Below, one piece after another: positions 6,362 to 37,851 of a DNA stretch of 64,000 bases; the stretch's first letter is position 1; each line of letters begins with the position of its first letter. The stretch covers positions 46,063 through 110,062 of the forward strand of contig CAZSIT010000002.1 of NCBI GenBank assembly GCA_964607165.1. Reading direction: 5' to 3'. Both the position numbers and the translations under genes were made by a program. The notes under the pieces are model-generated. The model was not told where the DNA came from. It saw nothing but the letters and a program-made list of their open reading frames with translations, and did no database searches. The DNA is from an uncultured Ignavibacteria bacterium. Lineage in GTDB: Bacteria > Zixibacteria > MSB-5A5 > DSPP01.

Positions 6362-6394
6362 CAAAAAACCAAAGGGCGGGTTTGCACCCGCCCC
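6362..6394 (-). terminator. Rho-independent terminator after dockerin-like gene B1
   Basis: GGGCGGG-tttgca-CCCGCCC stem-loop; on minus strand followed by TTTGGTTTTTTGT. Confidence 0.7.
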
Positions 6395-6416
6395 TTGATT
6401 CGTCTTACTAATGGGG

Positions 6417-6893
6417 CTATGGTCCGCACCAGGGAGGAGCATTTAACCCCAAATAGGTCTTGTTCAGTTCCAAGACCACATCCGCGCTGGTCAAAATCCC
6501 ATCGCAGTTGACATCCGAAAAACAGGCGTCGCAGCTACCAAGTCCCAAATAAGTGCAGTTAAGCAGCAACACCACATCGGCGCTGGTGTAAATATCATCA
6601 AAGTTCATATCTCCTTTAAGCGCAGCACAGGTGGCCTGCCAAAAGCCGATGCCCAGGTTCAGGCCGCCGCCGCTTCCCGCTCCCGACACCGACTGGCCAA
6701 CCGTGTAGCCCAGTTTAAGCGGGCCGCCCGAGCCAAAGCTCGCGCCTCCGCCGTTGATGGAAATCCATTTGAGTTGTGGCAGGGCAAAAGCGGCTCCCGC
6801 CAGCCATACGGTCAGGAAAGCTACAAGAAGCGCAAAAAGGAACAGATGCTTCTTTCTACTTCCTATCAAAGTGGGAACACATTTAGTTGTCAT
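6417..6893 (-). CDS. small secreted protein B1: signal peptide, Gly-rich region, C-terminal Cys-containing dockerin-like double repeat
   Basis: 158 aa; hydrophobic N-terminus; 'DMNFDDIYTSADVVLLLNCTYLG' and 'DVNCDGILTSADVVLELNKTYLG' each fit the dockerin Ca-loop DxNxDGxxxxxD followed by hydrophobic helix; AGGAGG RBS; start overlaps upstream gene by 11 nt. Confidence 0.7.
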   Translation of the reverse strand: MTTKCVPTLIGSRKKHLFLFALLVAFLTVWLAGAAFALPQLKWISINGGGASFGSGGPLKLGYTVGQSVSGAGSGGGLNLGIGFWQATCAALKGDMNFDDIYTSADVVLLLNCTYLGLGSCDACFSDVNCDGILTSADVVLELNKTYLGLNAPPWCGP

Positions 6894-8298
6894 CTCCTCC
6901 TCCTGCGTTCTGGCCTTGTTTAGTCGCCTCTTCCAGCTTTTTCAGGCGGGCCTCTATTTCGGCCCGCTCGGCCCGTATCTGGGCCAGTTCTTCATCAAGG
7001 CGGGCCTGATTGGCGGCGATAGAGGCAGCGCGCTCCGCTTCCACATTGAACGCTCCCGATACCTGGGCATCTTCATTCGGATGTTGCGGGCTGGGGAAGG
7101 CAAAACCTCCATACGCCGTCGGGAAATAAAGAACGGTGATCTTAGCCAATCCAGCCGTTACTGCCCCGTTAAAAGGGACCTGGGACATAAGCAGAGTATA
7201 GGTAAAGGGACCCGCTGCCGGTATGGGCCGCGTGATTATTCTCACTTGGGTCTGGTCCGAAAACCCATCGGCGTCACCGGCATCCCAGCTCCAGGTTGCC
7301 ATTATGGGACCATTTTCAGTCAGTGCGCACGGTAAGGCATTGTTGGGGGCAGCGAGAGCAACGGAAAACTGCGCCTCACAGATTATTACGGCAAAGCCGG
7401 CCGCCGGGGCCACCAGCGTGATGCCAGCAAAAACTGGCCCAAATCCGCCTGGGACGGGAACACCTAACGGTCCAGCCGGACTGGCAACAAGCCCCGGTTC
7501 GTCAAACGATTCGATGGAAGAAATGGAACCTCCCGGAACCACCACGGCGCCGTTGCTGCTCGCATCGGCATCTATGCTGACGGTTACCGCATTGACGTCG
7601 TTTGTCATCGAAAGCAAAGAGCCGCCACCAGTCACCCCACCCTGCAAGCTGATTCCGGGGCTGCCGTTATCTTTTTTAAGCAGGAGGGTTCCTCCTGCAC
7701 CAATAACATCTCCGGCTAAGTCCACCGTTAAAACGTTACCGGCTGTATTATCCCTAAGCCAGATCTCTCCATAAAGCGTTCCACCCATCTCGACGTTCCG
7801 CTTTCCATCGGCACCAATGACATAAAGGTTGTTATTGGCTGCATCAGTCTTTATGGCTAGGGTTTCAGGAGCAAATGTGCTTCTGACCTCCAGACCGTTC
7901 GCCACGCGGCTATACGGTGCGCTGATTAACTGGGTGCGGGGACTTATGATGTTAAGATCCACTTCGACTTCCAAATAAACCGAGTCGTTGTTTATAAATA
8001 CATCTGTCGGTATGGGGTCAAGGATGGGGTCAACCGAACCCAATTGATGGGTAAACAAGCCGCCCGCATCGGGGGTAATGCTCTTGGTTTCATCCCAGAG
8101 AAGCCCTCCCGCCGCTGGCAGCGTGTAAAGACGGAAGATAAAAGTATGCGGCGAGCCACCCAGAGGATTGCCCAAAGCATCGGTCAGCTTCCCCTGAAAG
8201 TTGACCAGGTTGGGAACGGACGACACGTTCGCCGCCTGGGTGAATCCAACCAACAACGCAGCGGTCAAAACCACTGCCAAAAGAAAAATGCGTTTCAT
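6883..8298 (-). CDS. secreted Gly/Ala/Thr-rich protein A1 with conserved N-terminal 'NFQGKLTDxLGNPL' module and C-terminal coiled coil
   Basis: 471 aa; signal peptide; motif 'VNFQGKLTDALGNPL...FRLYTLPAAGG..LW' shared with A2 (9072..10478); C-terminal heptad-like 'LDEELAQIRAERAEIEARLKKLEE'; GGAGG RBS. Confidence 0.65.
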   Translation of the reverse strand: MKRIFLLAVVLTAALLVGFTQAANVSSVPNLVNFQGKLTDALGNPLGGSPHTFIFRLYTLPAAGGLLWDETKSITPDAGGLFTHQLGSVDPILDPIPTDVFINNDSVYLEVEVDLNIISPRTQLISAPYSRVANGLEVRSTFAPETLAIKTDAANNNLYVIGADGKRNVEMGGTLYGEIWLRDNTAGNVLTVDLAGDVIGAGGTLLLKKDNGSPGISLQGGVTGGGSLLSMTNDVNAVTVSIDADASSNGAVVVPGGSISSIESFDEPGLVASPAGPLGVPVPGGFGPVFAGITLVAPAAGFAVIICEAQFSVALAAPNNALPCALTENGPIMATWSWDAGDADGFSDQTQVRIITRPIPAAGPFTYTLLMSQVPFNGAVTAGLAKITVLYFPTAYGGFAFPSPQHPNEDAQVSGAFNVEAERAASIAANQARLDEELAQIRAERAEIEARLKKLEEATKQGQNAGGGDDN

Positions 8299-8530
8299 TG
8301 CTTATTCCTCCCGTTTTTTTGGGTTTTTTACTTGCTGTCCGCCTTTACGGCGGACAGCGTTTACGCTTGTGCCGTTAAATCAGAAGATTTGCTTTCCAGC
8401 GGTGCCTCCTTTCGTTGCCTGCCAATCCGAAAAAAGTCCTAAAAGCTATGTAACTACAAGTCACCCGGCAATCCCCCCACAGAACTGCCGTTTAAGAGCC
8501 ATATTCAAAATACCCCTTGGTCAGCCCTTA
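8299..8530 (-). promoter_or_regulatory. conserved ~230-nt leader/promoter region (copy 1) with perfect palindrome CTGTCCGCC-tttac-GGCGGACAG
   Basis: Near-identical to 10479..10715 over several blocks although downstream CDSs have diverged; palindrome at ~8337..8359. Confidence 0.55.
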
Positions 8531-8552
8531 GTCAAGCTTTTTCGGGGGCTGG

Positions 8553-8584
8553 AAAATAAAAAGGGGCGGGTTTTCACCCGCCCC
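8553..8584 (-). terminator. Rho-independent terminator after dockerin-like gene B2
   Basis: GGGGCGGG-ttttca-CCCGCCCC; minus strand followed by TTTTATTTTCC. Confidence 0.7.
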
Positions 8585-8606
8585 TTGGATGTTTTTGCGC
8601 TTGCCT

Positions 8607-9062
8607 TTACGGAGGTCCGCACCAGGGAGGAGCACTTAGCCCCAGAAAGGTCTTGTTCAGTTCCAAGACCACATCCGCACCGGTCAAAATATTGTCGCAG
8701 TTAACGTCGGCAAAGCAGACGTTGCAGTTGCCGAGTCCCAAAAAGGTGCAGTTAAGCAGCAACACCACGTCGGCGCCGGTGTAAATGGCGTCGTGGTTCA
8801 TATCCCCTTTACTGGAGCCGCAGGTTCCATACAAATATCCGGCATAGTTGTAGTAATTGGCGCTGTTTCCCACTCCAATCGGCGTGCTTTGAGCGGCGAT
8901 GGTCACCGGCTGCCGGCGGTTAGCCGAGCTCATCGCTCCCCCGGAGTTGGAAAAGGCCTGGCGCGGAATCTTATAGTTGGCGCTGGACATCTGGGCGGAG
9001 GTTTCTCCAGCTAACCAGCCGAACCCTAAAACTCCGCATAGAAAGATTAATACCTTTCGCAT
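8607..9062 (-). CDS. small secreted protein B2 (paralog of B1) with C-terminal Cys-containing dockerin-like double repeat
   Basis: 151 aa; 'DMNHDAIYTGADVVLLLNCTFLG...DVNCDNILTGADVVLELNKTFLG...PPWCGPP'; AGGAGG RBS 5 nt upstream of ATG. Confidence 0.7.
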   Translation of the reverse strand: MRKVLIFLCGVLGFGWLAGETSAQMSSANYKIPRQAFSNSGGAMSSANRRQPVTIAAQSTPIGVGNSANYYNYAGYLYGTCGSSKGDMNHDAIYTGADVVLLLNCTFLGLGNCNVCFADVNCDNILTGADVVLELNKTFLGLSAPPWCGPP

Positions 9063-9071
9063 TGTTTCCTC

Positions 9072-10478
9072 CTACTCTCTTGGCTGTCCAATTTGCGGCG
9101 TTTCCGGGCCAGGAGTGGCGACCGGCAGAGCAACAGGGACATAAAGGGCTGAAGCGATAGCACCGGGATACAAGTGGATTGCAAAGCCGCTCCCGGCATT
9201 ATCAGCGTTCAGATAAAAGGTAACCGCTCCAGGTCCTCCAACCGGAACCACCCGGACGAGCGAAAAACCGTGCGTGGAATTAAAGCCGCTGGTGGCATCG
9301 GCATCCTGATAATAGCGGTCGATATAAGTTCCGCCGCAGGTAGCACTGGAAGCGGGGGTAGTGCACAATCCCATATCAAAACTGACGGTTAAGGAAGCGA
9401 CACCAACGGCGTCCGCATCGTACCACCATTGGCCGGAGACGTTGAGCCATAGAACGCCAGCCGCCGGCACGGTCACGGTAAAAGAAGTGAGGGTGGCCGG
9501 TACGGGGCTTACGGTGAGGGGGGCAGGCAGCAGTACGGAACCGGCCGCCGCTTTTGCGTCGGGGCCGAGCTCAATGGCGCTGATGGCGTTCGCGGGCAGA
9601 ACGGCCGAAGCATTCCCAGCCACCCCGCCATCCAGAGTGATGGTGGTTGCACTGGCGCCGTTTGTCAGGTTGAGGGTGCCGCCACTACCGGTGGTGCCGC
9701 CATAGAGAGATGCCCCTGGGGTGCCACTCTCTTTGTTCAAATTTAAACTCCCTCCAACCGGGCAGGCAAGACAACCACCGTCGAGGGTGGCTGAAATGTT
9801 TCCCGCACCAGCTCCGTTCACGAAGTCCGCTCTCCCATTACCGAGCCCATTTGGGGTTAGAGCGATAACATTACCTGAGAATGAAAAATCCAAACCGAGC
9901 GTGCCATACATAACGTCCCCGGCCCTCTTAACGTAGTCGCCGCTGGTCAGCCCACCCAGCCGGTCGGCATTAATGGCATAGGCCACGCTGGTAATTTCCT
10001 GCCGGGGAGTCATTTCCAGCGCTTCCGTCGTGACCTTAACCCCCAGATAGCGGGGTATGCCATCAAACAGGTCGGCCGGGAAAGCCGGCCCCGTACCTAA
10101 CGGGACGTTGTAAAAGCCATCCGCATCCGGCGTTACAGGGGTGGATTGCGGCCCCCATAAAAGCAGCGCGCCTCCCCCCGGCCCGTCGTAGATTCTGAAT
10201 TCCAAGGTGGTCATCACGGTAATCGGCGCCCCCAATGTGTTGGTCAGTTTCCCCTGATAATTGATGGTGGCAGGCACCACCAAGCTGGCTCCCTGGCCTG
10301 TTCCGGCGGCAGGCGGCTGAATCACCACACCCGGCGGTAGGTCATTGACCCGCGAGGTGAGCGGCTGAACCACCCCACCCCGCGGTTGGTCCGCGGCCTG
10401 CAAACTGCCCCCTGCTGTCAGTAAAAAACTGAACGCTAAAACAGTTAGCGTTAAAGCTGGTAAAAAAGAACGTTTCAT
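9072..10478 (-). CDS. secreted Gly/Ala/Thr-rich protein A2 (paralog of A1) with N-terminal 'INYQGKLTNTLGAPI' module
   Basis: 468 aa; signal peptide; same N-terminal motif and compositional bias as A1; 9-nt gap to B2. Confidence 0.65.
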   Translation of the reverse strand: MKRSFLPALTLTVLAFSFLLTAGGSLQAADQPRGGVVQPLTSRVNDLPPGVVIQPPAAGTGQGASLVVPATINYQGKLTNTLGAPITVMTTLEFRIYDGPGGGALLLWGPQSTPVTPDADGFYNVPLGTGPAFPADLFDGIPRYLGVKVTTEALEMTPRQEITSVAYAINADRLGGLTSGDYVKRAGDVMYGTLGLDFSFSGNVIALTPNGLGNGRADFVNGAGAGNISATLDGGCLACPVGGSLNLNKESGTPGASLYGGTTGSGGTLNLTNGASATTITLDGGVAGNASAVLPANAISAIELGPDAKAAAGSVLLPAPLTVSPVPATLTSFTVTVPAAGVLWLNVSGQWWYDADAVGVASLTVSFDMGLCTTPASSATCGGTYIDRYYQDADATSGFNSTHGFSLVRVVPVGGPGAVTFYLNADNAGSGFAIHLYPGAIASALYVPVALPVATPGPETPQIGQPRE

Positions 10479-10715
10479 TGCTTACTCCTCCCGTTTTTTG
10501 GATTTTTTGATTTCCTGTCCGCCTTTACGGCGGACAGCGTTTACGTCTTTTGGTGATAAAATTAAAAGATTCGCTTCTCCAGCGCTTCCTCCTTTCGTTG
10601 CCTGCCAATCCGAAAAAAATCCTAAAAGCAAAGCTATGTAACTACAAGTCACCCGGCAATCCCCCCACAGAACTGCCGTTTAAAAGCCACTTAAAAAATA
10701 GGCAGGTTTCCTTTT
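10479..10715 (-). promoter_or_regulatory. conserved ~230-nt leader/promoter region (copy 2) with the same CTGTCCGCC-tttac-GGCGGACAG palindrome
   Basis: Blocks 'ttcctcctttcgttgcctgccaatccgaaaaaa' and 'ctatgtaactacaagtcacccggcaatccccccacagaactgccgtttaa' shared with copy 1. Confidence 0.55.
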
Positions 10716-10824
10716 ATTGTCAAGCAAAACTTTGACTTTTTTAACAAAAAAGGTTGCCAATTTCGGAGGAAACCCTATTTTATCCTGCCGGTTCTGATAA
10801 ACCCTGACGGAGGAGGGTAATAAG

Positions 10825-11420: not shown

Positions 11421-14018
11421 ATGCGCGAATTTAAATTCGCCAGTCTTTTTCTTTTGACAACCTTTGCCGCCCTCTTTGCCCGCGGCCGCTGGGGAGACCA
11501 ATATTCCGACTTCCACTTCGCCCGCGACCGGGCCTTTGATTTAATCCACACCAGGCTGGAAATCTCCTTTAACGAAAAGGAGCGTTCGCTGGCCGGAAAG
11601 GTGACCCATACTTTCACTCCCCTTTTGCCGAATCAAAGATTTGTAGTTCTGGATGCCGTCGGTTTAAACATCGAAAAAATCTCGGATCCCACGGGCAATT
11701 CTTTGGCCTTTGACCAGTTTGACGGCAAGTTGAAAATAGATTTGGGGCTGCCCTTCCGGCCGCAGTTCGACACTTTCTTTGTGACCATCGACTACAACGG
11801 CAAGCCAAAGGAGGGAATTTATTTCGTTCAACCGGATTCAAGATACCCGCGCAAAAAGCATCAAATCTGGAGCCAGGGGGAAGACGAATACACCCGCTAC
11901 TGGATACCGATTTACGATTATCCGAATGACAAGGCTACTTCGGAGGTGCTGGTGACCGTGCCGGAAAAATACTTGGCGGTCTCCAACGGAGAGCTGGTTT
12001 CCGACACCCGCGCCAACGATATGCGCACTTTTCACTGGCGGGAAAACGTCCCCCACGTTACCTATCTGATTTCCCTTGTCGCCGGTGAACTGGAAATGTA
12101 TTCCGATACGGCCACCGTGTATGTGGATAACAAAATAAAAATCGTTCCAATGCTTTATTACCATCCTCCCGGCGAGAAGGAAAAATCGGTCCGCTCTTTC
12201 GGCAAAACCGGCAAGATGATTCGCTTCTTTTCGGAAAAAATTGGCGTGCCGTATCCCTACGAAAAGTATGCGCAGGCGGCGATTGACGAGTTTATGTGGG
12301 GCGGGATGGAAAACATCTCGGCCACCAGCCAGACCGAGCGCACGCTCCACGACCGGCTGGCGCATCAGGATTTTAAATCCGAGGGGCTGGTGGCGCATGA
12401 GCTGGCGCACCAATGGTGGGGGGATTTGCTCACCTGCCGGGACTGGTCGCACATCTGGCTGAACGAGGGGTTCGCCACCTACTTTGACGCTCTCTTTCAG
12501 GAATACGATTTAGGGTCGGATGAAATGCCGGTGGAAATGCGCGATAATCGGGACGGCTATTTGAATGAGGACAAAAGCTATCGCCGTCCCATCGTCACCA
12601 GCTATTACACCGACCCGTTCGATATGTTCGACCGGCACACCTATCCCAAGGGGGCCTGGGTTTTGCACATGCTGCGCACCTATCTCGGAGAAGAGTTCTG
12701 GTGGAAGGGAATCAACCATTACTGTCAAAAGCATTACGCCGACAACGTGGGAACATCCGACTTTGAGCGGGCGATGGAAGAAACGACCGGAAAAAACCTG
12801 GATTGGTTTTTCCAGCAGTGGGTCTATAAAGGCGGCTATCCGGAGTTTAAAATCCGAACCAGTTGGGACGATTCCGCCAAAGTGACCAAAATCAGTATTG
12901 AACAAATGCAGCCGACCGATTCGCTTACGCCGATTTTCCGGGTCAAACTGCCGGCGGTGGTCACCACTTCGAAAGAAGCCCTCCTTGATACGTTCTGGAT
13001 TGACCAGAAAGAAGAAGTTTTCTATATCGCCACTTCCGAGCGGCCCCAAATGGTGGAAATCGACCCGCGTTTGACGGTTCTGAAAACGGTTGACTTTGAG
13101 CGCTCAGAAGAAGCTCTGCGGTATCAATTGGTAAACAGCAAAGTTACCGAAAGCCGGCGGGAAGCGGCCGAGGCTTTGGCCAAGTTCAACTCGGATGAAA
13201 CCATCGAAGCTCTCTCAAACACCCTTAAATCCGAGCCTTTTTACGATGTTCGCCGACAGACCGCTTTGTCCCTGGGAGAAATTCGCGGAGAGAAAGCCAA
13301 AAAAGCCTTGTTTGTCGGTTTGGGGGATAAGGATTCACGCGTACGTCTGAACTGCGTGAAAGCTTTGGTTAAATTCAGAGACGATGCCGAGGTGGTGGCC
13401 AAACTCAAGCAGGTATTTTCCTCGGACACCAGCTACGCCACCGTGGCCGCCGTGATGACTACCATTGCCAAATTGGAACCGCCGGACGCCTTTGAATTTT
13501 TGCAAAAGGGGCTTTTGCGCTCTTCGCATAACGAAGTCATCTCCACTGCAACGCTGGCCGGATTGGCCGAGTTGAAAGACCCGCGTGCCGTTGATATTTT
13601 GATTGCCCACACGGCCTACGGCCGCCCCGAACCGATTCGCAACGCCGCCATCGCTGCTTTGGGAAAATTAGGCGGCATTTTGCGCGATGAAAAAGGAGTT
13701 TCCGCCTCCCGTATGCAAAAACAGATTCGCCAAACGTTAGTGGACTTACTTTCCGACTCAAAGTATACCAGCCGCCGCTCGGCTATTTCCGCCCTCGGCG
13801 CTTTCGGCGACCCGGAAACCATAAACGAACTAAAAAAAGTGGAAACCCGCGAAGTTTCCTACCAGTTGAAAAAAGGCGCCCGTCAGGCGATAGAATCCAT
13901 CCGCACGGCCAATAAGGAAGCGCTGACCCCGGACGAGCTCCGCGCCCGTTTGGAAGGGCTGGAAGATGATAACAAAGCCCTGCGTCAGCGGCTTGAGGCG
14001 TTGGAAAAGAAAAAGTAA
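11421..14018 (+). CDS. M1-family zinc aminopeptidase with C-terminal HEAT (PBS-lyase-like) repeats and terminal coiled coil
   Basis: 'GGMEN' exopeptidase motif and 'HELAHQWWGDLLTCRDW...WLNEGFATYF' HExxH-x18-E zinc site; repeated 'DxxVRxxAxxALGxxG' HEAT units at the C-terminus; annotated ORF start 11292 overlaps the terminator, so the GGAGG-preceded ATG at 11421 was chosen. Confidence 0.8.
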   Translation: MREFKFASLFLLTTFAALFARGRWGDQYSDFHFARDRAFDLIHTRLEISFNEKERSLAGKVTHTFTPLLPNQRFVVLDAVGLNIEKISDPTGNSLAFDQFDGKLKIDLGLPFRPQFDTFFVTIDYNGKPKEGIYFVQPDSRYPRKKHQIWSQGEDEYTRYWIPIYDYPNDKATSEVLVTVPEKYLAVSNGELVSDTRANDMRTFHWRENVPHVTYLISLVAGELEMYSDTATVYVDNKIKIVPMLYYHPPGEKEKSVRSFGKTGKMIRFFSEKIGVPYPYEKYAQAAIDEFMWGGMENISATSQTERTLHDRLAHQDFKSEGLVAHELAHQWWGDLLTCRDWSHIWLNEGFATYFDALFQEYDLGSDEMPVEMRDNRDGYLNEDKSYRRPIVTSYYTDPFDMFDRHTYPKGAWVLHMLRTYLGEEFWWKGINHYCQKHYADNVGTSDFERAMEETTGKNLDWFFQQWVYKGGYPEFKIRTSWDDSAKVTKISIEQMQPTDSLTPIFRVKLPAVVTTSKEALLDTFWIDQKEEVFYIATSERPQMVEIDPRLTVLKTVDFERSEEALRYQLVNSKVTESRREAAEALAKFNSDETIEALSNTLKSEPFYDVRRQTALSLGEIRGEKAKKALFVGLGDKDSRVRLNCVKALVKFRDDAEVVAKLKQVFSSDTSYATVAAVMTTIAKLEPPDAFEFLQKGLLRSSHNEVISTATLAGLAELKDPRAVDILIAHTAYGRPEPIRNAAIAALGKLGGILRDEKGVSASRMQKQIRQTLVDLLSDSKYTSRRSAISALGAFGDPETINELKKVETREVSYQLKKGARQAIESIRTANKEALTPDELRARLEGLEDDNKALRQRLEALEKKK

Positions 14019-14028
14019 GCCCCCTCAT

Positions 14029-14616
14029 ATGGTTGACAAGGATAATTCTTTATTGAAGTGGGACGAACTCATAAGTTTCCAGCTTCGAATTGCGGAAAGA
14101 TGGTTGAGACGGGGAAGAGAGACACAAGATTCGTTTGCTCAGTTCTTTTTTTTCTTTGCTGGGTTCAACGCCTTATACTTTTTGTGGCTAAAAATAGATG
14201 ACCTCAAAAACGAGGAAGGTAAATCAGCAAGAGAGGAAAAACAGATAGAAAATCTCTTGAAAAAGCTCGGCGAAGAAGCCGATGAAATTTTGACAGAACT
14301 TTCCACACATATCGATTTCTTCGCTAAACATACACCCATACAACGTATGGACAAAAGGACTGCTGAAAATCCTTACGAGGGAGATGAAGAAGAAGGGAAA
14401 AAAGCACTCCGAAAGCTTGCGAGAAATAGCACTCTCGTTGATCAGTTGGTAGGGCTTGGAAAAATAGTTTATCTTGTGAGGTCAAATTTATTTCATGGAA
14501 GTAAGGCTTTGGAGGGTGACGATAAAGATATTATTGAAAACAGTGTGCGACCATTAGAAATTTTCCTTGAAAGATCTATAAAAATGACGAAGCGTCAAAG
14601 TCCTTCGTATACGTGA
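14029..14616 (+). CDS. hypothetical protein with HEPN-like Rx4HG motif (AT-rich islet gene 1)
   Basis: 195 aa; 'VRSNLFHGSK' fits the HEPN R-x4-6-H motif; region visibly AT-richer than flanks; 3-nt gap to next gene. Confidence 0.35.
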   Translation: MVDKDNSLLKWDELISFQLRIAERWLRRGRETQDSFAQFFFFFAGFNALYFLWLKIDDLKNEEGKSAREEKQIENLLKKLGEEADEILTELSTHIDFFAKHTPIQRMDKRTAENPYEGDEEEGKKALRKLARNSTLVDQLVGLGKIVYLVRSNLFHGSKALEGDDKDIIENSVRPLEIFLERSIKMTKRQSPSYT

Positions 14617-14619
14617 AAA

Positions 14620-15075
14620 ATGCCCCTATATTTTGCCTACGGTTCAAACCTGGACACACAACGAATGATTTCAGCTAACGGCAGATGTCCAAACTCGGAA
14701 AAAATAGGTAGCGCTTGTCTTAAAGGTTACCGTTTGGTTTTTACTCGATATTCATCACTTTGGGGAGGGGGCGTCGCAGATGTGATTTCTGATCCCGAAA
14801 GCGAGGTTTGGGGAATAGTTTATGACGTGGCTGAAAAGGACTTTGAACGATTGGATTACTATGAAGGTTACCCCACTTTCTACGATCGATTTCAAGCTTC
14901 AATCAACACTGCCAACGGAGTGATTTCAAATGTTTGGGTTTATGCGGTGGTTGATAAAGGAGACTTTAGCCCACCTACTAAAAATTACTTGAAAATCATA
15001 CTGACCGCTGTTAAAGAAAATGAATTTCCAGAAGATTATCGATCTTTTCTCTCTACTATTAAAACTAAAGATTAG
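14620..15075 (+). CDS. gamma-glutamyl cyclotransferase (GGCT/AIG2-like) family protein (AT-rich islet gene 2)
   Basis: 151 aa; N-terminal 'YFAYGSNL' and 'YEGYP' motifs of the AIG2/GGCT fold. Confidence 0.6.
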   Translation: MPLYFAYGSNLDTQRMISANGRCPNSEKIGSACLKGYRLVFTRYSSLWGGGVADVISDPESEVWGIVYDVAEKDFERLDYYEGYPTFYDRFQASINTANGVISNVWVYAVVDKGDFSPPTKNYLKIILTAVKENEFPEDYRSFLSTIKTKD

Positions 15076-15081
15076 GCTAGC

Positions 15082-16038
15082 ATGATTAAAACGCTCGTTT
15101 TCGAGAACGGCTCTCTCCGCGAAGGGAAACTGGAGGAGCTCGAAAAACCTGGGGTCATCGGCTGGGTTGATTTGGAAAACCCGTCTGATGAAGAATTGGC
15201 ATCCGCTGCCAATCTGACTAAACTCGAGCCGAACGAGCTGAAGGACAACTTGGGCAAAGGGCAGGGGGCGATTACCAAAAACTATGAGCAATACTCTCTT
15301 TTGGTTTTCCGTTCCGCCTTAAAGGGTCAGCGGGAGACTTTCACCCAGCCTTTTGTAATCCTGGTCTCCAAGAAGAATAAGGATTTAATTACCATTCACC
15401 GTCACCCCTCCTCCAGCCTGGAACGGATTTACGCCTATCCCCAGCAAAGGCTAATTCCCCTTTTTTCCAAAGGGCCGACGATGCTGCTTTATGTCCTTTT
15501 GGGGGAGTTCATCGAAAGCTACCGCACTGCCTTGACCGCCGTTGAAGATGTGGTCGAAGAGGTGGAAGAAGCGGTAATAAGTGGCAGCTCCCGGGAAACG
15601 GTCTTAAAACAGGTTCTGGGACTGAAAAAAGCTTTGGTTTTCTACCGCAAAGATTTATCGGCCAATCGCGAAGTGGTTTCCTCAATTGAAAAAGAATACG
15701 CCGACCATCTGGATAAAAGTTTATTGCCCAAGTTTCGATTGCATTATGCCGATTTGTCCTCGCTGGTCGATAGCGTTTCGATTTACAACGATATTTTATC
15801 GACGGCAACCGAAGTGCATCTTTCTATCGTTTCCAATAATCTCAATTTAACAATGAAAAAAATGACTTCGTGGGGAGCGATTATTTTAGTCCCCTCATTG
15901 ATTGCGGGAATTTACGGAATGAATTTCGTTCACCTTCCTCTTTCCGGGATTAAAGGCGGCTTTTGGATTTTACTTGCCCTGATGGCCGCCTCGGTAGCCG
16001 GCTTGGTGCGTTATTTTAAAAAGCAGGATTGGCTGTAG
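15082..16038 (+). CDS. corA: CorA-family Mg2+/Co2+ transporter
   Basis: 318 aa; C-terminal two TM helices with 'YGMNF' signature. Confidence 0.8.
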   Translation: MIKTLVFENGSLREGKLEELEKPGVIGWVDLENPSDEELASAANLTKLEPNELKDNLGKGQGAITKNYEQYSLLVFRSALKGQRETFTQPFVILVSKKNKDLITIHRHPSSSLERIYAYPQQRLIPLFSKGPTMLLYVLLGEFIESYRTALTAVEDVVEEVEEAVISGSSRETVLKQVLGLKKALVFYRKDLSANREVVSSIEKEYADHLDKSLLPKFRLHYADLSSLVDSVSIYNDILSTATEVHLSIVSNNLNLTMKKMTSWGAIILVPSLIAGIYGMNFVHLPLSGIKGGFWILLALMAASVAGLVRYFKKQDWL

Positions 16039-24288: not shown

Positions 24289-25273
24289 TATGAAGGTGGG
24301 TAACTTGAGCATACAGGGGAAAGTCCTCCTTTCCCCTATGGCGGGGGTGACAGATATCACCTTCCGGATGCTGGCCAAGCGCTTGGGGGCCTCTATGGTC
24401 TATTCCGAAATGATATCCGCTGACGGGCTTTCACGCGGAAATGCCAAAACCGAGCGGTATATGGAGTTTCACGAAAGCGAGCGCCCCATCGGCTTCCAGC
24501 TTTTTGGCTGCGACCCGTATGTTATGGGGGAAGCGGCGCGCAAAGCTTCCGCCCTTAAACCGGATATTATGGATATCAATTTCGGTTGCCCGGTGCACAA
24601 GGTGACCAAAAAAAACGGCGGCTCTTCGCTTTTGCGTGATTTGAAGCTGTTTGCGCAAATCATCAAGGCAGTAATCAAAGGTTCCTCCGTGCCGGTGACG
24701 GTCAAAATCCGTTCCGGCTGGGACCATAGCTCCATCATCGCTCCGGAAGCGGCCCGAATCGCCGAAGATTTGGGAGCGGTAGCTTTGACCATCCATCCCC
24801 GCACCCGCCAGCAGATGTTTGAAGGCAAAGCGGACTGGTCGGTGATTGCCCGGGTGAAAGAAGCGGTAAATATTCCGGTGGTGGGGAACGGGGATATTAA
24901 TTCTGTGGAGGATGCCCAAAGGATGTTAGACCAAACCGGCTGCGATGCGGTGATGATTGCCCGCGCCGCTTTGGGAAACCCCTGGATTTTGGGGCAGATT
25001 CACCACTACCTTGAAACTAAAGAAAAAATCGCCGAAGCTTCCGTGGCGGAAAAAGCGGCAGTCTGTTTGGAGCACGCCGAACAGTTATGCGCCCGAGTGG
25101 GCGAAGGGTTGGGAATGAAAGAGATGCGCAAGCACATCGCCTGGTATATTAAAGGTTTCCCAAAGGCCTCCGAACTGCGCCAGAAAATTAATACCCTGGA
25201 GACTTTTGAACAATTAAAAGGATTACTTTTGCCCTACTGCGAACCGGCAGAGAAGGTTGATGAGGCGGCGTGA
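24289..25273 (+). CDS. dusB: tRNA-dihydrouridine synthase
   Basis: 'LSPMAGVTD' N-terminal motif, TIM-barrel Dus family; start chosen at ATG 24289. Confidence 0.8.
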
Positions 25274-30740: not shown

Positions 30741-30795
30741 TGGAAATCTTTCTAAAATACTTGGAACAACCTTTGCCCCTTTCCGGTTATTGGCG
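30741..30795. repeat. ~50-nt repeat copy 1 (shared with 34335..34390)
   Basis: 'ggaaatctttctaaaatacttggaacaacctttgcccctttccggttattgg' vs 'gataaatttcttcaaaaaacttggaacaacctttacctatttccggttattgccgg'. Confidence 0.6.
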
Positions 30796-30803
30796 CGGAG
30801 AAA

Positions 30804-32663
30804 TCAGGATTTGCTATCTTTTGTCTTTTTGACCCAATCTCTGACCATTTGTTCAAGGATATTCAAAGGCACCGCCCCGCTGCCCAAAACCAAATCGTGA
30901 AAAGCGCGAAGGTCAAACTTCTCCCCCAAATCCTTTTGCGCCGCCTCGCGTAATTCCTTGATTTTCAACTGGCCGATTTTATAGGCCAAGGCCTGCCCGG
31001 GCCAAACAATGTAACGGTCCACCTCCACCGTAATGTCGTGTTCGGCCTTGCCGACGTTTTGCGTAAAGTAATCGATCGCCTGCTGGCGGCTCCAGCCCTT
31101 CCAGTGCATCCCCACGTCCACCACCAGGCGGATGGCCCGCCACATTTCGTAGCTCAACTGCCCAAATTTGGAATAAGGGTCTTGATAAAAGCCCATTTCG
31201 TATCCCAAACCTTCGGCATACAACCCCCACCCTTCTCCGTAGGCGGTGTACCAGCCCCAGCGCCGGAATTCCGGCAGGTTTTCCAACTCCTGCGCTATGG
31301 AGCCCTGCAGATGGTGACCGGGAACGGCTTCGTGCAGGGTTAAAGGTTCCATTTCCCATTTGGGGCGGGATTTCAAATCATAGGTGTTGGCATAAAAGTA
31401 TCCGGGACGGCCGGCTGCCAGCGAGCCGGGCTGGTAATAGGCGGTGGTCTGCGATTTTTCCATATACTCCGGCACCGGCTTCACCCCGTACGGCAGGCGG
31501 GGCAGATGCCCGAACAGCTTGATTAACTCCGGGTCGGCCCGCTTGCAAATATCGCGATAGGATTCCAAAAGGTCCTCCGCTTTCGAAAAGAAAAACTGCG
31601 GGTCAGTGCGCAAAAAGTCGCAAAATTCGGAAAAACTCCCTTTGAAAGCGGTTTCGGCAATTACCTTGTCCATTTCCCCGCGTATGCGCTTAACTTCGCT
31701 TTCCCCCAGGTCGAAAATTTGTTCCGGGGTCATCGCCGTGGTGGTGTAGGATTTGGCCTGATAGGCGTACCATTTTTTCCCGTTGGGAATATCCGACAGG
31801 CCGATGCTGGTCCGGCAGCCGGGGAGATAGGTCTTTTCGAGATAGGCGGCCAGCGCTTCAAAAGCTGGGACGATTTGGCCGGTGTATAGCGAATGCGCTT
31901 CCTTGCGCAACTCCTCCTGCTTCGCCGTTGGAATGGTGTTTGGAAAGGTTTTGAAAGGGGTCAGCATCGGCGCTTCGGCCGGGTCCTTTACGATTTGATC
32001 TCTGACCTGCTGGGGAACGTCCCGCAGGGTAATCTGCGGCGGCGTAATCCCCTCTTTCAAACCGCGCTCCAAAAGCACCCGCACCTGGCCGGTCAAAGCG
32101 GGAACCGCTTTCAGCCGGGCCAGAATATCCTGATAATCCTTCACGGTGCCAGACGGCATAACGGCGACCAACTGGGGGATATCCTGCTGCACGCCGTTCA
32201 ATTGCGTAAGGGGGGTCAGTTCGGCGGGAAATTCCGCCCCTTCGATGTCAAGCGAGGTTTTGTCCTTGAAAAGGTCGTAATTGAGTTGGTCTTGGCTGGA
32301 AAGTTTCTCTTTGGAAATAGAGTTTAAAACCTCGATAATCAGGGGGGATTCTTTTTTGCGTCTTTCTATGGCGGCAAACGACATATCGGTCAATTTGTCG
32401 TTTAAGCCGGGATAGCCGATGAAGGTGGCGAACTCCGGACTTTCCTCCATCCCATGCTTCCAGCACAAATCAAAAAGCTGGTAGAGCCGCGCGGAGTCGG
32501 CGACTTTTCCTTTGGATTGGGCGAGGTTGGCACAGCTTTTTTGGAAACTGGTCATCTGGTTTTGGGCGGAAGCCGATAGAGGGAGTACCAACATTGAGCT
32601 AAGCAATGCTACTGCGATTCGTTTTTTCGATGGCCATTTCATTCCAGCCCGCAAAGTATACAA
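30804..32663 (-). CDS. DUF885-family secreted putative metallopeptidase
   Basis: 619 aa; signal peptide; 'LHEAVPGHHLQ' HExxxGH motif typical of DUF885. Confidence 0.6.
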   Translation of the reverse strand: MYTLRAGMKWPSKKRIAVALLSSMLVLPLSASAQNQMTSFQKSCANLAQSKGKVADSARLYQLFDLCWKHGMEESPEFATFIGYPGLNDKLTDMSFAAIERRKKESPLIIEVLNSISKEKLSSQDQLNYDLFKDKTSLDIEGAEFPAELTPLTQLNGVQQDIPQLVAVMPSGTVKDYQDILARLKAVPALTGQVRVLLERGLKEGITPPQITLRDVPQQVRDQIVKDPAEAPMLTPFKTFPNTIPTAKQEELRKEAHSLYTGQIVPAFEALAAYLEKTYLPGCRTSIGLSDIPNGKKWYAYQAKSYTTTAMTPEQIFDLGESEVKRIRGEMDKVIAETAFKGSFSEFCDFLRTDPQFFFSKAEDLLESYRDICKRADPELIKLFGHLPRLPYGVKPVPEYMEKSQTTAYYQPGSLAAGRPGYFYANTYDLKSRPKWEMEPLTLHEAVPGHHLQGSIAQELENLPEFRRWGWYTAYGEGWGLYAEGLGYEMGFYQDPYSKFGQLSYEMWRAIRLVVDVGMHWKGWSRQQAIDYFTQNVGKAEHDITVEVDRYIVWPGQALAYKIGQLKIKELREAAQKDLGEKFDLRAFHDLVLGSGAVPLNILEQMVRDWVKKTKDSKS

Positions 32664-34332: not shown

Positions 34333-34395
34333 ATGATAAATTTCTTCAAAAAACTTGGAACAACCTTTACCTATTTCCGGTTATTGCCGGTATGA
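34333..34395 (+). other. 20-codon upstream ORF (MINFFKKLGTTFTYFRLLPV) with AAGGAG RBS, stop overlapping msrBA start (ATGA); lies within repeat copy 2
   Basis: aaggagaaaaaaATGataaat...ccggtATGAaaaca; the uORF TGA overlaps the ATG of the 34392 gene. Confidence 0.35.
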
Positions 34396-35408
34396 AAACA
34401 ACAATTATACTATTGGCGTTGGTGGTAGGTATTATAGGGGTTTTTGGGTTGGTTTTGTCGCAAGGAACAAAGAAGAAGGAGGATAGTAACAAAGTGACTT
34501 ACAATAAGTTGACCCCCGAGGAGGAGCGGGTAATCGTGCGCAAGGGCACGGAGATGCCCTATACCGGCAAGTATTACGATTCCCACGACAAGGGAACCTA
34601 CACCTGCAAACGCTGCGGGGCGGTGCTCTACCGTTCGGACGACAAGTTCGATTCCCACTGCGGCTGGCCCAGCTTTGACGACGCCGTTCCGGGGGCGGTC
34701 AAGCAGGTGCCGGACGCCGATGGCCAGCGCACGGAGATTTTGTGCAACCACTGCGGCGCGCACCTGGGGCACGTTTTTACCGGGGAAGGTCTCACTTCCA
34801 AAGACACGCGCTATTGCGTAAATTCAATTTCTATGAGCTTTATCCCGGCCGGAGCCGGCGTATCCCCTGGCCGAGGAGTGGAGCGGGGAGAACGGGCAGG
34901 CGAAACGAACGGTAAGAGTCAAACCAAGACGCAAAAGGCCTATTTTGCCGGCGGATGCTTTTGGGGAACGGAGTATTATTTAAAGCAGGTCAAAGGGGTA
35001 ACGGACGTGAAGGTCGGCTATATGGGTGGGAAGAAGAAAAACCCGACCTACCGGGAGGTCTGCAACGGGAACACCGGGCACATTGAGGCCAACGAGGTGA
35101 CTTTTGATCCGACCAAGACCAGCTACGAGGAAGTGGCCAAGTTATTTTTCGAAATCCACGACCCGGCGCAGGTGAACCGCCAGGGGCCTGACGTCGGGGA
35201 ACAGTATAAGTCGGTGGTTTTCTACGCTAACGATGAGCAGAAACATACGGCGGAAAAGCTGATTGGAATTCTGAAGAGCAAGAGAATACCGGTGGCGACG
35301 GAGCTGCGCCCGGCAACCGAGTTCTGGGTGGCGGAGGATTATCATCAGGATTACTACGCCAAAACCGGCAAGGAGCCGTACTGCCATCATCGGGTGAAGC
35401 GGTTTTAA
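34392..35408 (+). CDS. msrBA: bifunctional peptide-methionine sulfoxide reductase MsrB-MsrA fusion with N-terminal TM helix
   Basis: MsrB zinc CxxC pairs ('CKRCGAVLY','CNHCGAHLGHVF') and 'RYCVNS'; MsrA 'FAGGCFWGTEYY'; linker contains the 40-nt motif shared with 28511..28560. Confidence 0.85.
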   Translation: MKTTIILLALVVGIIGVFGLVLSQGTKKKEDSNKVTYNKLTPEEERVIVRKGTEMPYTGKYYDSHDKGTYTCKRCGAVLYRSDDKFDSHCGWPSFDDAVPGAVKQVPDADGQRTEILCNHCGAHLGHVFTGEGLTSKDTRYCVNSISMSFIPAGAGVSPGRGVERGERAGETNGKSQTKTQKAYFAGGCFWGTEYYLKQVKGVTDVKVGYMGGKKKNPTYREVCNGNTGHIEANEVTFDPTKTSYEEVAKLFFEIHDPAQVNRQGPDVGEQYKSVVFYANDEQKHTAEKLIGILKSKRIPVATELRPATEFWVAEDYHQDYYAKTGKEPYCHHRVKRF

Positions 35409-35622: not shown

Positions 35623-37851
35623 ATGAGCACTCATTTAACTGTAGAGGAAATGGTAAAAAAGATTAAAGAAGCCCTTGCGCAGGCCGGGTCGCATCCGCCC
35701 CGCGTGCGGGAGTTAGCTCGGAAGTTGTCAATTCCGGAAACCCAGTATCACCAATTCCGGCGTTTACTGAAAGAGATGATGCGCAATGGCGATTTGGCCA
35801 AGGGCCGGGGCGGTAAATTAGCTCTGTCAGAAAGGCAGGGCCGGATTACTGGCATTTTTACCCCCGCTCGCGCCGGGTTCGGTTTCGTCAAACCGGAAGA
35901 TGGCTCTGAGGATATTTACATTTCGCGCGAGCGGATTGCTGGAATTCTGCTTCCCGGCGATAAAGTCGAAGTTACTTTGCTTCGGAAAGGGTGGAAGGAC
36001 TTAAAGCGCGAAGGGGAAGTGATTAGGGTTTTAGAGCGGCAGACCAACCAGCTGGTTGGCACCTTCCATTCCATTCACTCAGACGCTTCGTTTACGCTGC
36101 GCTCAACGCAAGCGGAACGAGCCAACCGTGCCAACTACGTGATACCGGACGGCTTGGGGGAACGCTGGGAAGTTTTCATCCCGCAGGAAAAGACACACAA
36201 AGCGCAGGCGGGTCAGAAAGTGCTGGTACAGCTTCTCCCGCAAAAACCGGGCGTTTGGGGCCTGGAAGGAGAAATCGCCGAGGTTCTGGGAGATGCCGGT
36301 AACTCCCAAGCTATAATTCAAGGATTGGTTTACACCTATCGAATTTCGGTCGATTTTCCACACGAGGTTGAAAAAGAGCTGACCAGCCTGCCTGCAAAAG
36401 TGGCCGCTTCCGAAATCAAAAAACGCTGGGACTTTCGCAAGAAAATATGCTTTACCATTGACCCGATTGACGCCAAAGACCACGACGACGCCGTCACTTT
36501 GGAAAAACTGCCGGACAAAAATTGGCTTTTGGGAGTGCACATCGCCGACGTTTCCCACTACGTGCGCGAGGGTTCGGCCATCGACAAAGAAGCGGTCAAA
36601 CGCGGCAACTCGGTTTATCTCCCCGGACGAGTGATTCCAATGCTGCCGCACGCGCTCTCGTCCAATCTTTGCTCGCTTCTGCCGGAAAAAGTGCGCCTGA
36701 CTTACTCCTGTATGATGGAGCTTTCGCCCGATGGGCAGGTGAAAAAGTACGAAGTCGGCCGCTCGGTCATCCATTCCGCCGCCAAGTTGAACTACGAAGA
36801 GGTGCAGGAGGCGTTCGACGGCGGCGCGGCGCGCAAGAAATTGTCGAAATTTCTGGAGCCGCTGGAGGATATGCATCAGTTATCCAAAATTCTTTTGCAA
36901 AATAGGATGAAAAAAGGGAGTTTGGATTTCGATTTACCGGAGGATGAAATAATTTTGGACGCTGCAGGAAAAGTCGTCGACCTCAAACGCTCCGTGCGGC
37001 TTGATTCGCACCGGCTGATTGAAGAGTTTATGCTCCTGGCCAATCAAACAGTCGCCCGCTTTACGACGGCCTACAACTTGCCGGTTTTATACCGCGTCCA
37101 CGCCCCGCCGGATGAGGAAAAAATCGAGGCCTTCTTTTCGATTTTGAACGAACTGGGGTACAAATTTTCGCACAAGGGAGAAATCACCCCCCTGCGGCTT
37201 TCCAAAGTTCTTTCGCACATCGCCGGCAAACCGGAAGAGGAGCTGATTAACGAAATTCTTTTGCGCTCCTTGAAAAAAGCGATCTATCAGGATGAAAATA
37301 TCGGCCATTTCGGTTTGGCCTTTGACCGTTATTTGCATTTCACCTCTCCCATTCGGCGCTATCCTGATTTGCTCGTGCACCGGATTTTGCACGAATACCA
37401 ATCCGGCGGCCTCACCGCTAACCGTTATCAAACCATGCGCAAGCAGGCCGTGCATTTGGGGCAGCATTGCTCGGCCACAGAGCGCACCGCCAACGAGCTG
37501 GAACGAGAGGCGGTGAAAGTCAAACAGCTGGAGTTTATGGAAGACAAAGTCGGTGAGCATTACAAAGGCGCGGTCTCAGGCGTCACTAACTTCGGCGTTT
37601 TCGTCCGCTTGGGTCAGATGGGGGTGGAAGGAATGATTCGCCTGCGGGATTTGACCGACGACTACTACATTCTGGACGAGCGGGGGCATCGCTTAATCGG
37701 CCGAAAAACCAAAAGGAAAATTCATCTGGGCGACCCGATTACGGTCTTCGTGGTGCGGGTAGATAGGGAAGCCGGAAGAATCGAATTGGTTCCCGACTGG
37801 GGGAAGCCAAAAGATGAAAACCGGTATGCCAAAAAAAGGCAATTGAAATGA
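35623..37851 (+). CDS. rnr: ribonuclease R
   Basis: 742 aa; N-terminal HTH, cold-shock/OB, RNB catalytic domain, C-terminal S1 domain. Confidence 0.85.
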   Translation: MSTHLTVEEMVKKIKEALAQAGSHPPRVRELARKLSIPETQYHQFRRLLKEMMRNGDLAKGRGGKLALSERQGRITGIFTPARAGFGFVKPEDGSEDIYISRERIAGILLPGDKVEVTLLRKGWKDLKREGEVIRVLERQTNQLVGTFHSIHSDASFTLRSTQAERANRANYVIPDGLGERWEVFIPQEKTHKAQAGQKVLVQLLPQKPGVWGLEGEIAEVLGDAGNSQAIIQGLVYTYRISVDFPHEVEKELTSLPAKVAASEIKKRWDFRKKICFTIDPIDAKDHDDAVTLEKLPDKNWLLGVHIADVSHYVREGSAIDKEAVKRGNSVYLPGRVIPMLPHALSSNLCSLLPEKVRLTYSCMMELSPDGQVKKYEVGRSVIHSAAKLNYEEVQEAFDGGAARKKLSKFLEPLEDMHQLSKILLQNRMKKGSLDFDLPEDEIILDAAGKVVDLKRSVRLDSHRLIEEFMLLANQTVARFTTAYNLPVLYRVHAPPDEEKIEAFFSILNELGYKFSHKGEITPLRLSKVLSHIAGKPEEELINEILLRSLKKAIYQDENIGHFGLAFDRYLHFTSPIRRYPDLLVHRILHEYQSGGLTANRYQTMRKQAVHLGQHCSATERTANELEREAVKVKQLEFMEDKVGEHYKGAVSGVTNFGVFVRLGQMGVEGMIRLRDLTDDYYILDERGHRLIGRKTKRKIHLGDPITVFVVRVDREAGRIELVPDWGKPKDENRYAKKRQLK

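Follow-up and report, generated by a model that had tools for sequence, protein, structure and literature searches.

The window analysed here is a 64,000-nucleotide (nt) stretch of DNA from an uncultured bacterium of Zixibacteria lineage in GTDB (contig CAZSIT010000002.1, positions 46,063 to 110,062). It carries two gene cassettes, each consisting of a gene termed A followed by a gene termed B, and both are preceded by a leader of about 200 nt that lies between a promoter and the A start codon. Comparison with homologous loci indicates that this leader is a real, selected and previously uncatalogued 5′ untranslated region (UTR) element. The interpretation favoured here, held tentatively, is that it is an mRNA-level expression module that combines a structured 5′ domain with an orphan Shine-Dalgarno (SD) sequence similar to the STAB-SD of Bacillus thuringiensis cry3A.

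The two leaders and their homologues

Both cassettes are situated on the minus strand of the window. As the A1 and A2 genes lie on this strand, the strings quoted in a preliminary description of the DNA are the reverse complement of the mRNA, and the strand reading given there is corrected. A promoter stands before each A gene and a terminator follows each B gene, thus each cassette appears to form its own transcription unit with a promoter, the leader, A, B and an intrinsic terminator (Table 1). The transcription start sites (TSS) predicted from the promoters are at about 8500 (cassette 1) and about 10688 (cassette 2). The −35 and −10 hexamers are common to cassettes 1 and 2 and to loci L108, L001, L006 and L003 (L numbers denote fetched homologous loci; W1 and W2 denote the window leaders of cassettes 1 and 2).

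The repeated blocks reported in the preliminary description are real. Probes of 25, 34 and 23 nt each match just these two places in 64 kb with 0 matches expected in shuffled sequences, and a repeat search shows three collinear blocks at 88–94% identity between the leaders. Probes, repeat search and nhmmer give no copies within the window beyond the two, and approximately 190 fetched loci searched with an nhmmer profile of the leader yield none either. The interval first assigned to the conserved leader requires adjustment: the conserved tract spans 8287..8512 and 10467..10700, and the outer segment 8513..8530 is promoter spacer, beyond which only the −35 hexamer is shared. The spacer has 37% identity between the copies, the 60 nt further upstream of the promoter 46%, and the first 150 nt of the A1 and A2 coding sequences (CDS) 53%. 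All three values are at chance level, therefore the similarity is bounded by the −10 box and by nt 8 inside the A coding sequence (ATGAAACG). Within these bounds a global comparison gives 94 matches, 2 substitutions and one 5-nt indel for the 5′ half (TSS to the internal GGAGG), and 82.6% identity with 16 substitutions for the 3′ half. In all, indels of 5, 1 and 2 nt separate the two copies.

The claim that the leader is more conserved than the coding sequence holds for A, where A1 and A2 share 27% protein identity and the 53% nt identity given above. B1 and B2 also share 80% identity over their last 228 nt (approximately 80% amino acid (aa) identity, in a dockerin-like C-terminus), and the terminators are near-identical as well (GGGGCGGGTG-AAA-CCCGCCCC). 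As B gene ends and terminators are also alike, the leader is not the sole shared module, and the cassettes appear to consist of a shared 5′ module and a shared 3′ module around a divergent middle. Conserved cassette ends that flank a divergent middle could allow cassette exchange.

A sister species (L100, the same as L108–L110) has approximately 87% identity to the window genome-wide. At the corresponding position, between DoxX and the UbiA/futalosine operon, it has just one cassette, of A2 type, whose leader shares 90% identity with W1 and 86% with W2. The preliminary description had staked its case on leader conservation in homologous cassettes of other genomes, and such conservation is found. 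In a comparison of the W2 locus with L108, the 5′ half of the leader is 90% and the 3′ half 82% identical, versus 69% for untranscribed intergenic DNA and 68% for the promoter spacer; the DoxX CDS is 89% identical and A2 codons 1–70 are 55% identical. The 5′ half of W1 reaches 96.9% identity to L108. Selection appears to act on the transcript, since the leader is kept like a housekeeping CDS while DNA just upstream of the TSS drifts.

W1, W2 and L100 are termed group I leaders. Group II leaders (L001, L006, L005 and L003) precede A1 orthologues of 45–58% protein identity, are 215–250 nt long and have promoters of the form TTGAC(A/T)-17/18-TAnnTT. Their motifs follow the same order as in the window. 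A 5′ start resembling GUUCUUAAA comes first, then a hairpin in which G(U/A)GGGGGG is invariant, tracts that are U-rich or read UUUUCG, and CGAAAGGAGG (in L003 CAAAGGAGG); a segment that varies leads on to a GC hairpin, AACCC, (C)GGGAGGAG(UAAG) and AUGAAACG. Outside the three near-identical group I copies conservation is limited to such short motifs. An alignment of whole leaders with MAFFT misaligned the 5′ parts, and an anchor-based alignment was used instead.

The distribution is narrow, with 7 distinct leader sequences in one Zixibacteria clade, and a robust RNA family is not yet definable from only 7 sequences. Rfam 15 gives no match in 8299..8530 or 10479..10715, either at the gathering threshold or at E ≤ 10. 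Only a handful of A1 homologues are found among 5.8 billion proteins, and likewise for A2. A metagenome scan with the pattern CGAAAGGAGG-N78-108-GGAGG-N4-8-ATGAAACG gave at least 98 loci, of which only L100 is a real homologue. A genome scan with the A-family N-terminal peptide gave 80 loci in many phyla that share an N-terminal domain of approximately 130 aa only, with no leader homologues among them. Syntenic relatives reached via the neighbouring aminopeptidase (L191–L193) are without DoxX and cassette and yield no new leaders.

Predicted structure of the leader transcript and the orphan Shine-Dalgarno sequence

The W1 leader has a minimum free energy (MFE) of −68.2 kcal/mol (z = −3.75 versus shuffles) and W2 gives z = −3.11. 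The 5′ half reaches −30.3 kcal/mol (z = −2.3) on the sense strand, versus −10.1 kcal/mol (z = +0.5) on the antisense strand. Stems P1 and P3 use G·U pairs and the antisense strand folds poorly, thus the predicted folding appears to be a property of the mRNA strand and not of a DNA palindrome.

P1 is a hairpin that carries the invariant G-run in its loop and 3′ strand, and because it contains G·U pairs it is specific to the sense strand. Among 5 distinct sequences compared in one ungapped register, 78% of P1 cells are paired versus 60.5% in shuffles, and slid registers give 42–60%. Both sides have changed in 7 of the 10 pairs, a result seen in 0 of 500 shuffles; with five distinct sequences the support is modest. 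Covariation had been proposed as a check on the leader, and compensatory changes do maintain the pairing, for P1 only.

P0, P1 and P2 form a predicted three-way domain that is both the MFE and the centroid structure of the 5′ half in W1 and L108, by thermodynamic prediction only. Six differences are found in the 5′ half among group I leaders. Two are C>U changes that keep a G·U pair (one in P0, in W2; one in P3), three lie in loops or junctions, and one, a U>A change in L108, breaks a P2 pair. In P3 a U-tract pairs with a segment that includes the orphan SD, with a pair probability of 0.94–1.0 in W1 and L108 and a smaller value in W2. All homologues have U-tracts, which read UUUUCG or UUUUUG. 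RNAalifold on the anchor-based alignment recovers only the anchored U-tract:SD helix and a CCC:GGG mini-helix.

The orphan SD is the 9-mer GAAAGGAGG, which is complementary to the B. subtilis-type 16S 3′ tail CCUCCUUUC (PMC5427494); the host's own 16S sequence is outside the window. The motif is exact, as the 10-mer CGAAAGGAGG, in 8 leaders (W1, W2, L108, L001, L006, L005, L007 and L120), with a chance expectation of about 2e-4 per 250-nt leader, and is the most conserved leader element apart from the real ribosome-binding site (RBS). The protein of L007 is 35% identical and that of L120, from Zixibacteria, 31%; in L007 the 10-mer is found approximately 30 nt after the predicted TSS. No AUG, GUG or UUG is present 4–12 nt downstream of the motif in W1, W2, L108, L006 or L005. 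The only start candidate is a CUG 5 nt after it in group I, the frame of which is not conserved. Non-genic copies of GAAAGGAGG within leaders of the window number two only. A further copy of GAAAGGAGG participates in a hairpin at 24311..24331 (minus strand, GGGGAAAGGAGGACUUUCCCC), with no start codon at initiation distance.

A-like gene leaders of other Zixibacteria display a strong upstream SD with an AUG mini-ORF (open reading frame, ORF) 140–250 nt before the main start (L120, L156 and L189; Table 1), and in all three a compound hairpin is situated just before the real RBS. Ribosome binding appears to be the feature common to upstream SDs with or without a mini-ORF.

Downstream of the orphan SD the 3′ half folds with z = −4.5 and contains the 9-bp palindrome, here termed P5, which is perfect in both copies as first reported. 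It extends to 10 bp in copy 1, and the distance from its end to the ATG is 36 nt. In L108 the same position displays CUGCCCCGCC-AAA-GGCGGGACAG, with an added C:G pair and the spacer reduced from 5 to 3. The hairpins at this position are GGCCC-GUAC-GGGCC in L001, GGCC-CGUAC-GGCC in L006, GGCGUU-GGG-AACGCC in L005 and CCCCUU-N17-AAGGGG in L003, the last with a 6-bp stem and a 17-nt loop. Hairpin potential is thus kept among orthologues, while sequence, stem length and loop length change. A reading of the palindrome as an intrinsic terminator or attenuator was rejected: no U-run follows it on the transcript, CAAGUAAAAAACCCAAAAAAAC being found there instead, and a terminator scan reports nothing at the site. 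The preliminary description had likewise set a terminator aside, and an A-rich tract and the RBS do come after the hairpin.

AACCC, GGGAGGA and ATGAAACG vary little or not at all among the 7 homologues, and in every copy an unstructured A-rich spacer borders the real SD. The true SDs of A1 and A2 are the strongest in the 64-kb window, which is consistent with very high expression.

Proposed function of the leader and alternative explanations

In the favoured interpretation the leader would work at the RNA level on the sense strand. The structured 5′ domain (P0/P1/P2, with the G-run hairpin) would begin approximately 3 nt after the predicted TSS, followed by the U-tract hairpin P3, the 3′ strand of which is the orphan but perfect SD-like GAAAGGAGG some 110 nt before the real start. 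After this would come a variable segment, the stable GC hairpin of the palindrome, the A-rich spacer, the unusually strong SD and the ATG. We infer that a 30S subunit binds at the orphan SD and that this affects stability or translation: together with the 5′ structure it may guard the transcript against decay that depends on the 5′ end, as a STAB-SD does, and/or raise the local concentration of ribosomes, while hairpin and A-rich spacer would hold the true RBS open. The outcome would be high, stable expression of an abundant secreted protein.

The element most resembles known leaders of stabiliser and enhancer design, several of which show a partial likeness. In B. thuringiensis cry3A an SD-like sequence near the 5′ end binds 30S and blocks RNase J1 (PMC4113751). 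As in cry3A, the window has an SD-like sequence within the 5′ UTR, over 100 nt before the start codon, and this sequence does not initiate translation; the cry3A product is exported or accumulates and is expressed at a very high level, and here high expression is a probable counterpart. Agaisse and Lereclus are said to have given the cry3A motif in 1996 as GAAAGGAGG, reportedly at about −125 to −117. However, the cry3A motif lies a few nt at most from the processed 5′ end and the stabilising RNase J1 block has been demonstrated, whereas the window motif is predicted to pair with a U-tract and is separated from the predicted TSS by approximately 88 nt. The host also differs, as an uncultured Zixibacteria-like Gram-negative.

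Stem-loops at the 5′ terminus also stabilise the E. coli ompA 5′ UTR and the B. subtilis aprE leader. The window leader resembles these in being long, with a stem-loop domain within a few nt of the (predicted) 5′ end, a strong RBS and an envelope or secreted product, but there is no sequence or Rfam relationship, and the start of the domain relative to the TSS depends on a predicted TSS. According to the account of Narita et al. (2006) given in PMC3666127, the Lactobacillus acidophilus slpA UTLS is a long untranslated S-layer leader that raises expression; on that account the two have in common a leader of approximately 100–200 nt before a secreted surface protein. They share no sequence similarity, and an S-layer identity of A is unsupported, A lacking a Pfam match and giving a poor AlphaFold model. 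In fourU and ROSE thermometers a U run pairs with a GGAGG-type sequence via G·U and A-U pairs, as in P3, but here the partner of the U-tract is the orphan SD and not the start-codon SD, and no Rfam thermometer matches. The leaders of L120, L156 and L189 have in common with the window leaders the same gene-family N-terminus, a strong far-upstream SD (CGAAAGGAGG in L120) and a compound hairpin and A-rich tract before the RBS. They differ in the AUG and 5–10 codon frame that follow their upstream SD, no start codon coming after it in the clade of the window.

A number of points weigh against the module interpretation. The distance of the orphan SD from the 5′ end has been noted, and the TSS itself is a promoter prediction. 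The predicted unpaired probability of the orphan SD is 0.08–0.11 in W1 and L108, 0.34 in W2 and 0.7 in L001 and L003, and in W1 and L108 the predicted P3 pairing would hinder 30S binding unless P3 opens. Group II leaders fold no better than shuffles (z = +0.4 to −1.4), predicted folds and long-range pairings differ in detail among homologues, and covariation statistics are weak with 7 distinct leaders, or 5 for P1. In addition, the 97–98% identity of the 5′ half exceeds what a stabilising hairpin needs, which hints at a specific binding partner.

This last point leads to the main rival, a genuine regulatory RNA (orphan riboswitch, thermosensor, or protein or small RNA (sRNA) platform of CsrA- or Hfq-like type) that would switch A-B translation on and off, the orphan SD and the tracts of U and of pyrimidines acting as anti-SD and anti-anti-SD elements in competition. 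This is possible, though we regard it as unlikely. The rival is favoured by the sequence-level invariance of the 5′ half, since 2 substitutions in 96 nt between paralogues, and the near-identity to the sister species against a genome at 87%, go beyond the need of a simple hairpin. Several purine-rich (G-run, GGAGG twice) and pyrimidine-rich segments could form alternative pairings, and the 5′ CUCCCGU of L005 is perfectly complementary to the real SD. There are 8–10 GGA motifs versus approximately 5 expected; this excess is small and the CsrA idea is too weak. Switch control is common in surface-protein operons. However, the segment predicted to pair with the real SD changes from homologue to homologue, with only a 3-bp CCC:GGG pairing recurring, and the real SD sits beside the unstructured A-rich spacer in all copies. 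Beyond group I only the short motifs are kept, with no core resembling a ligand pocket. The structured 5′ UTR of the preliminary description is supported by promoters directly upstream, conservation of the transcribed tract, sense-only folding and P1 covariation, but its riboregulator or thermosensor is not, there being no Rfam family match even at E = 10 and no consistent predicted partner of the real SD among the homologues.

The near-identity of W1 and W2 requires a separate account. Cassette 1 has A1-type gene content, yet carries a group I leader, the type that precedes A2 both here and in the sister species; other A1 orthologues (L001, L006, L005 and L003) have group II leaders. W1 is also closer to L108 (90%) than is the orthologous W2 (86%). 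The simplest account from these comparisons is that an A2-type leader moved onto the A1 cassette by intragenomic transfer or gene conversion, and the transferred tract appears to be bounded by short motifs conserved in all leaders. Because an A1-type gene carries an A2-type leader, the near-identity is attributed to transfer or conversion on top of purifying selection, and the gene conversion limited to the leader that had been offered as one option is supported as the cause of the exceptional identity. Conversion alone does not explain the pattern, as the 5′ half is far better kept than the 3′ half. Purifying selection appears strongest on the 5′ 96 nt, with 2 substitutions there versus 16 in the 3′ half, and the 5′ half would have remained nearly unchanged after the transfer.

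It is improbable, then, that the similarity is simply a by-product of recent duplication or gene conversion in a leader that carries only the promoter and RBS. The A1-type gene with its A2-type leader, the shared B 3′ ends (80%) and terminators, which suggest homogenised cassette ends, and the single cassette of the sister species all fit this explanation. Against it, conservation of the leader between species stands well above that of flanking untranscribed DNA, and group II leaders keep leader length, motif order, P1 with compensatory changes and CGAAAGGAGG at 45–58% protein identity. A single neutral conversion tract would not differ in substitutions between its halves as this one does.

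A proposal that combines several of these elements is likewise doubtful. The leader would be a new lineage-specific cis-regulatory RNA with a near-invariant 96-nt 5′ domain (three-way junction, G-run loop and decoy SD masked by the U-tract) that binds a factor or ligand and gates ribosome loading on surface-protein mRNAs, and the shared 5′ and 3′ modules would serve as recombination handles that exchange variable A/B middles for surface variation.

The palindrome as a DNA operator for a dedicated dimeric transcription factor, acting as a roadblock downstream of the promoter, is highly unlikely. It is a perfect inverted repeat, the same in both cassettes, approximately 145–165 bp downstream of the promoter, and the single imperfect position in L108 is a C·A on the sense RNA, which an RNA hairpin would not favour. 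But orthologues retain a hairpin at this position without its sequence, which leaves the operator named in the preliminary description unsupported: the half-site is not kept in L108, L001, L006, L005 or L003 and stem and spacer lengths vary. The adjacent genes, DoxX and a UbiA/futalosine operon, include no regulator, and the most conserved part of the leader is the 5′ half, not the palindrome.

Least credible is control of the operon by a small peptide encoded in the leader, either an upstream ORF (uORF) after the orphan SD or a 13-codon 5′ ORF. In its favour are the SD+AUG mini-ORFs that occupy the corresponding position in L120, L156 and L189 (10, 10 and 5 codons), the ATG/GTG-started 13-codon frame across P1 in W1 and W2, and the group I CUG. 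Against it, every difference in the CUG frame between W1 and L108 is non-synonymous, and in W2 a frameshift leaves that frame 6 codons long; in L006 and L005 the motif lacks a nearby start codon. A 1-nt insertion in L108 interrupts the 5′ frame, which would start at or before the predicted TSS, and the indels between the leader copies are of 5, 1 and 2 nt. Both frames were rejected on the frameshifts and on changes that are exclusively non-synonymous.

If the expression module interpretation holds, the leader would be a concrete example of post-transcriptional expression design in Zixibacteria, a phylum without cultured representatives, consisting of a long structured leader and an orphan SD conserved from close paralogues to homologues of approximately 30% protein identity. 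Should the orphan SD stabilise or load the mRNA, STAB-SD-like control would reach well beyond Firmicutes, and 77 non-redundant environmental leaders point the same way. The leader swap between non-orthologous cassettes suggests that 5′ UTR modules can move as units.

The 77 metagenome leaders (which include L011, L013, L032, L033 and L077) were fetched by pattern and are a biased sample. The base after CGAAAGGAGG is T in 56% of them, and TG follows in 38%, which extends the 16S complementarity. A start codon is present 4–11 nt downstream in only 16, and in 19 cases the gene that follows encodes a lipobox-type protein. Upstream SDs of the orphan type may be widespread. In one group, of Chloroflexi-like solute-binding lipoproteins, a whole conserved leader with ACCAAT-like repeats is common to the group.

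Cassette genes and other features of the window

Table 1. Positions of the cassette features and of mini-ORFs in homologous leaders
Feature	Position	Strand	Remarks
Cassette-1 promoter, sigma70-type	8507..8535	−	TTGACT 8535..8530, 17-nt spacer, TATTTT 8512..8507; 9/12 match (promoter scan)
Cassette-1 leader (5′ UTR) of A1-B1 operon	8299..8500	−	approximately 202 nt; aligned with cassette 2
Three-way 5′ domain, predicted	8437..8497	−	P0 (UCUUAAA 8497..8491 with UUUAGGA 8443..8437) encloses P1 and P2
P1 hairpin	8466..8490	−	CGGCAGUUCU-GUGGG-GGGAUUGCCG; invariant G-run GUGGGGGG
P2, predicted	8464..8450	−	GUGACU-UGU-AGUUAC; inside P0
P3 hairpin	8406..8436	−	U-tract CUUUUUUCG pairs with CGAAAGGAG; inner UUG/CAA stem, GCAGG loop
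Orphan SD-like 9-mer, W1	8405..8413	−	GAAAGGAGG; −115..−107 from ATG
Palindrome, P5 hairpin	8335..8357	−	CTGTCCGCC-N5-GGCGGACAG; RNA CUGUCCGCC-GUAAA-GGCGGACAG
A-rich spacer and RBS	8296..8334	−	AACCC; strong SD GGGAGGA 8312..8306; start ATGAAACG, ATG 8298..8296
A1 gene	6883..8298	−	471 aa; signal peptide, all-beta with C-terminal coiled coil; orthologues P0002–P0005
B1 gene	6417..6893	−	158 aa; dockerin-like C-terminus
Terminator 3′ of B1, similar to that of B2	6401..6366	−	GC hairpin and U-run (terminator scan)
Cassette-2 promoter	10695..10723	−	TTGACA-17-TATTTT; 10/12 match (promoter scan)
Cassette-2 leader	10479..10688	−	approximately 210 nt; P1 10678..10654, palindrome 10537..10515, SD 10492..10486
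Orphan SD, W2	10596..10588	−	GAAAGGAGG; −118..−110
A2 gene	9072..10478	−	468 aa; 27% identical to A1; orthologues P0013, P0014
B2 gene	8607..9062	−	151 aa
Intrinsic terminator 3′ of B2	8561..8586	−	GC hairpin and U-run; divides the two transcription units (terminator scan)
Shared 3′ module of the cassettes	6366..6648 vs 8561..8841	−	B C-terminal end and terminator
Mini-ORF, L120	3855..3900		MRPKILVWWI*, 10 codons
Mini-ORF, L156	400..445		MRPKIFGRFN*, 10 codons
Mini-ORF, L189	3749..3790		MGCKV*, 5 codons

A Pfam search of the A and B proteins gives no match for A and only a sub-threshold dockerin match in B1. AlphaFold2 on A1, with a 10-sequence alignment, gives a pLDDT of 55. The N-terminal domain of approximately 130 aa in the A proteins ((L/T)(I/V)(N/D)(F/Y)QGKLT...F.(I/L)Y) is found behind signal peptides in L111–L190 and corresponds to no Pfam family. 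The metagenome-assembled genomes (MAGs) that carry it are labelled WOR-3, Zixibacteria, Elusimicrobia, Omnitrophota, Nitrospirota, CPR (Saccharibacteria, Doudnabacteria) and DPANN archaea.

The aminopeptidase beside the cassettes is 75% identical to one in a MAG labelled candidate division Zixibacteria, and L189 is from the same assembly; on this basis the window is assigned to a Zixibacteria-type lineage. In L191–L193 the futalosine/menaquinone operon and the M1 aminopeptidase have no DoxX and cassette between them. The sister species has a single A2-type cassette (L108 7207..10029) where the window has two. As the more distant Zixibacteria relatives lack the block, DoxX and cassette appear to be a lineage-specific insertion. 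Another indel between close relatives is window 14019..15082 (approximately 1.06 kb, with ORFs 13966..14616 and 14620..15075), which has no counterpart in the otherwise collinear L100.

Two further repeats are found on the plus strand. A 40-nt direct repeat with 98% identity (39280..39319 and 39584..39623) has one copy at the 3′ end of the ORF 37848..39329 and the other in the intergenic region before the ORF 39641..40495. A 63-nt repeat with 78% identity is present at 30744..30806 and 34338..34400. An ORF of 20 codons (MINFFKKLGTTFTYFRLLPV*) makes up the latter copy and overlaps the ATG of the gene that follows (34392..35408), and the former copy encodes a similar K(I/K)LGTTFxxFRLL stretch. 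This repeat may represent a conserved small leader peptide or a shared N-terminus.

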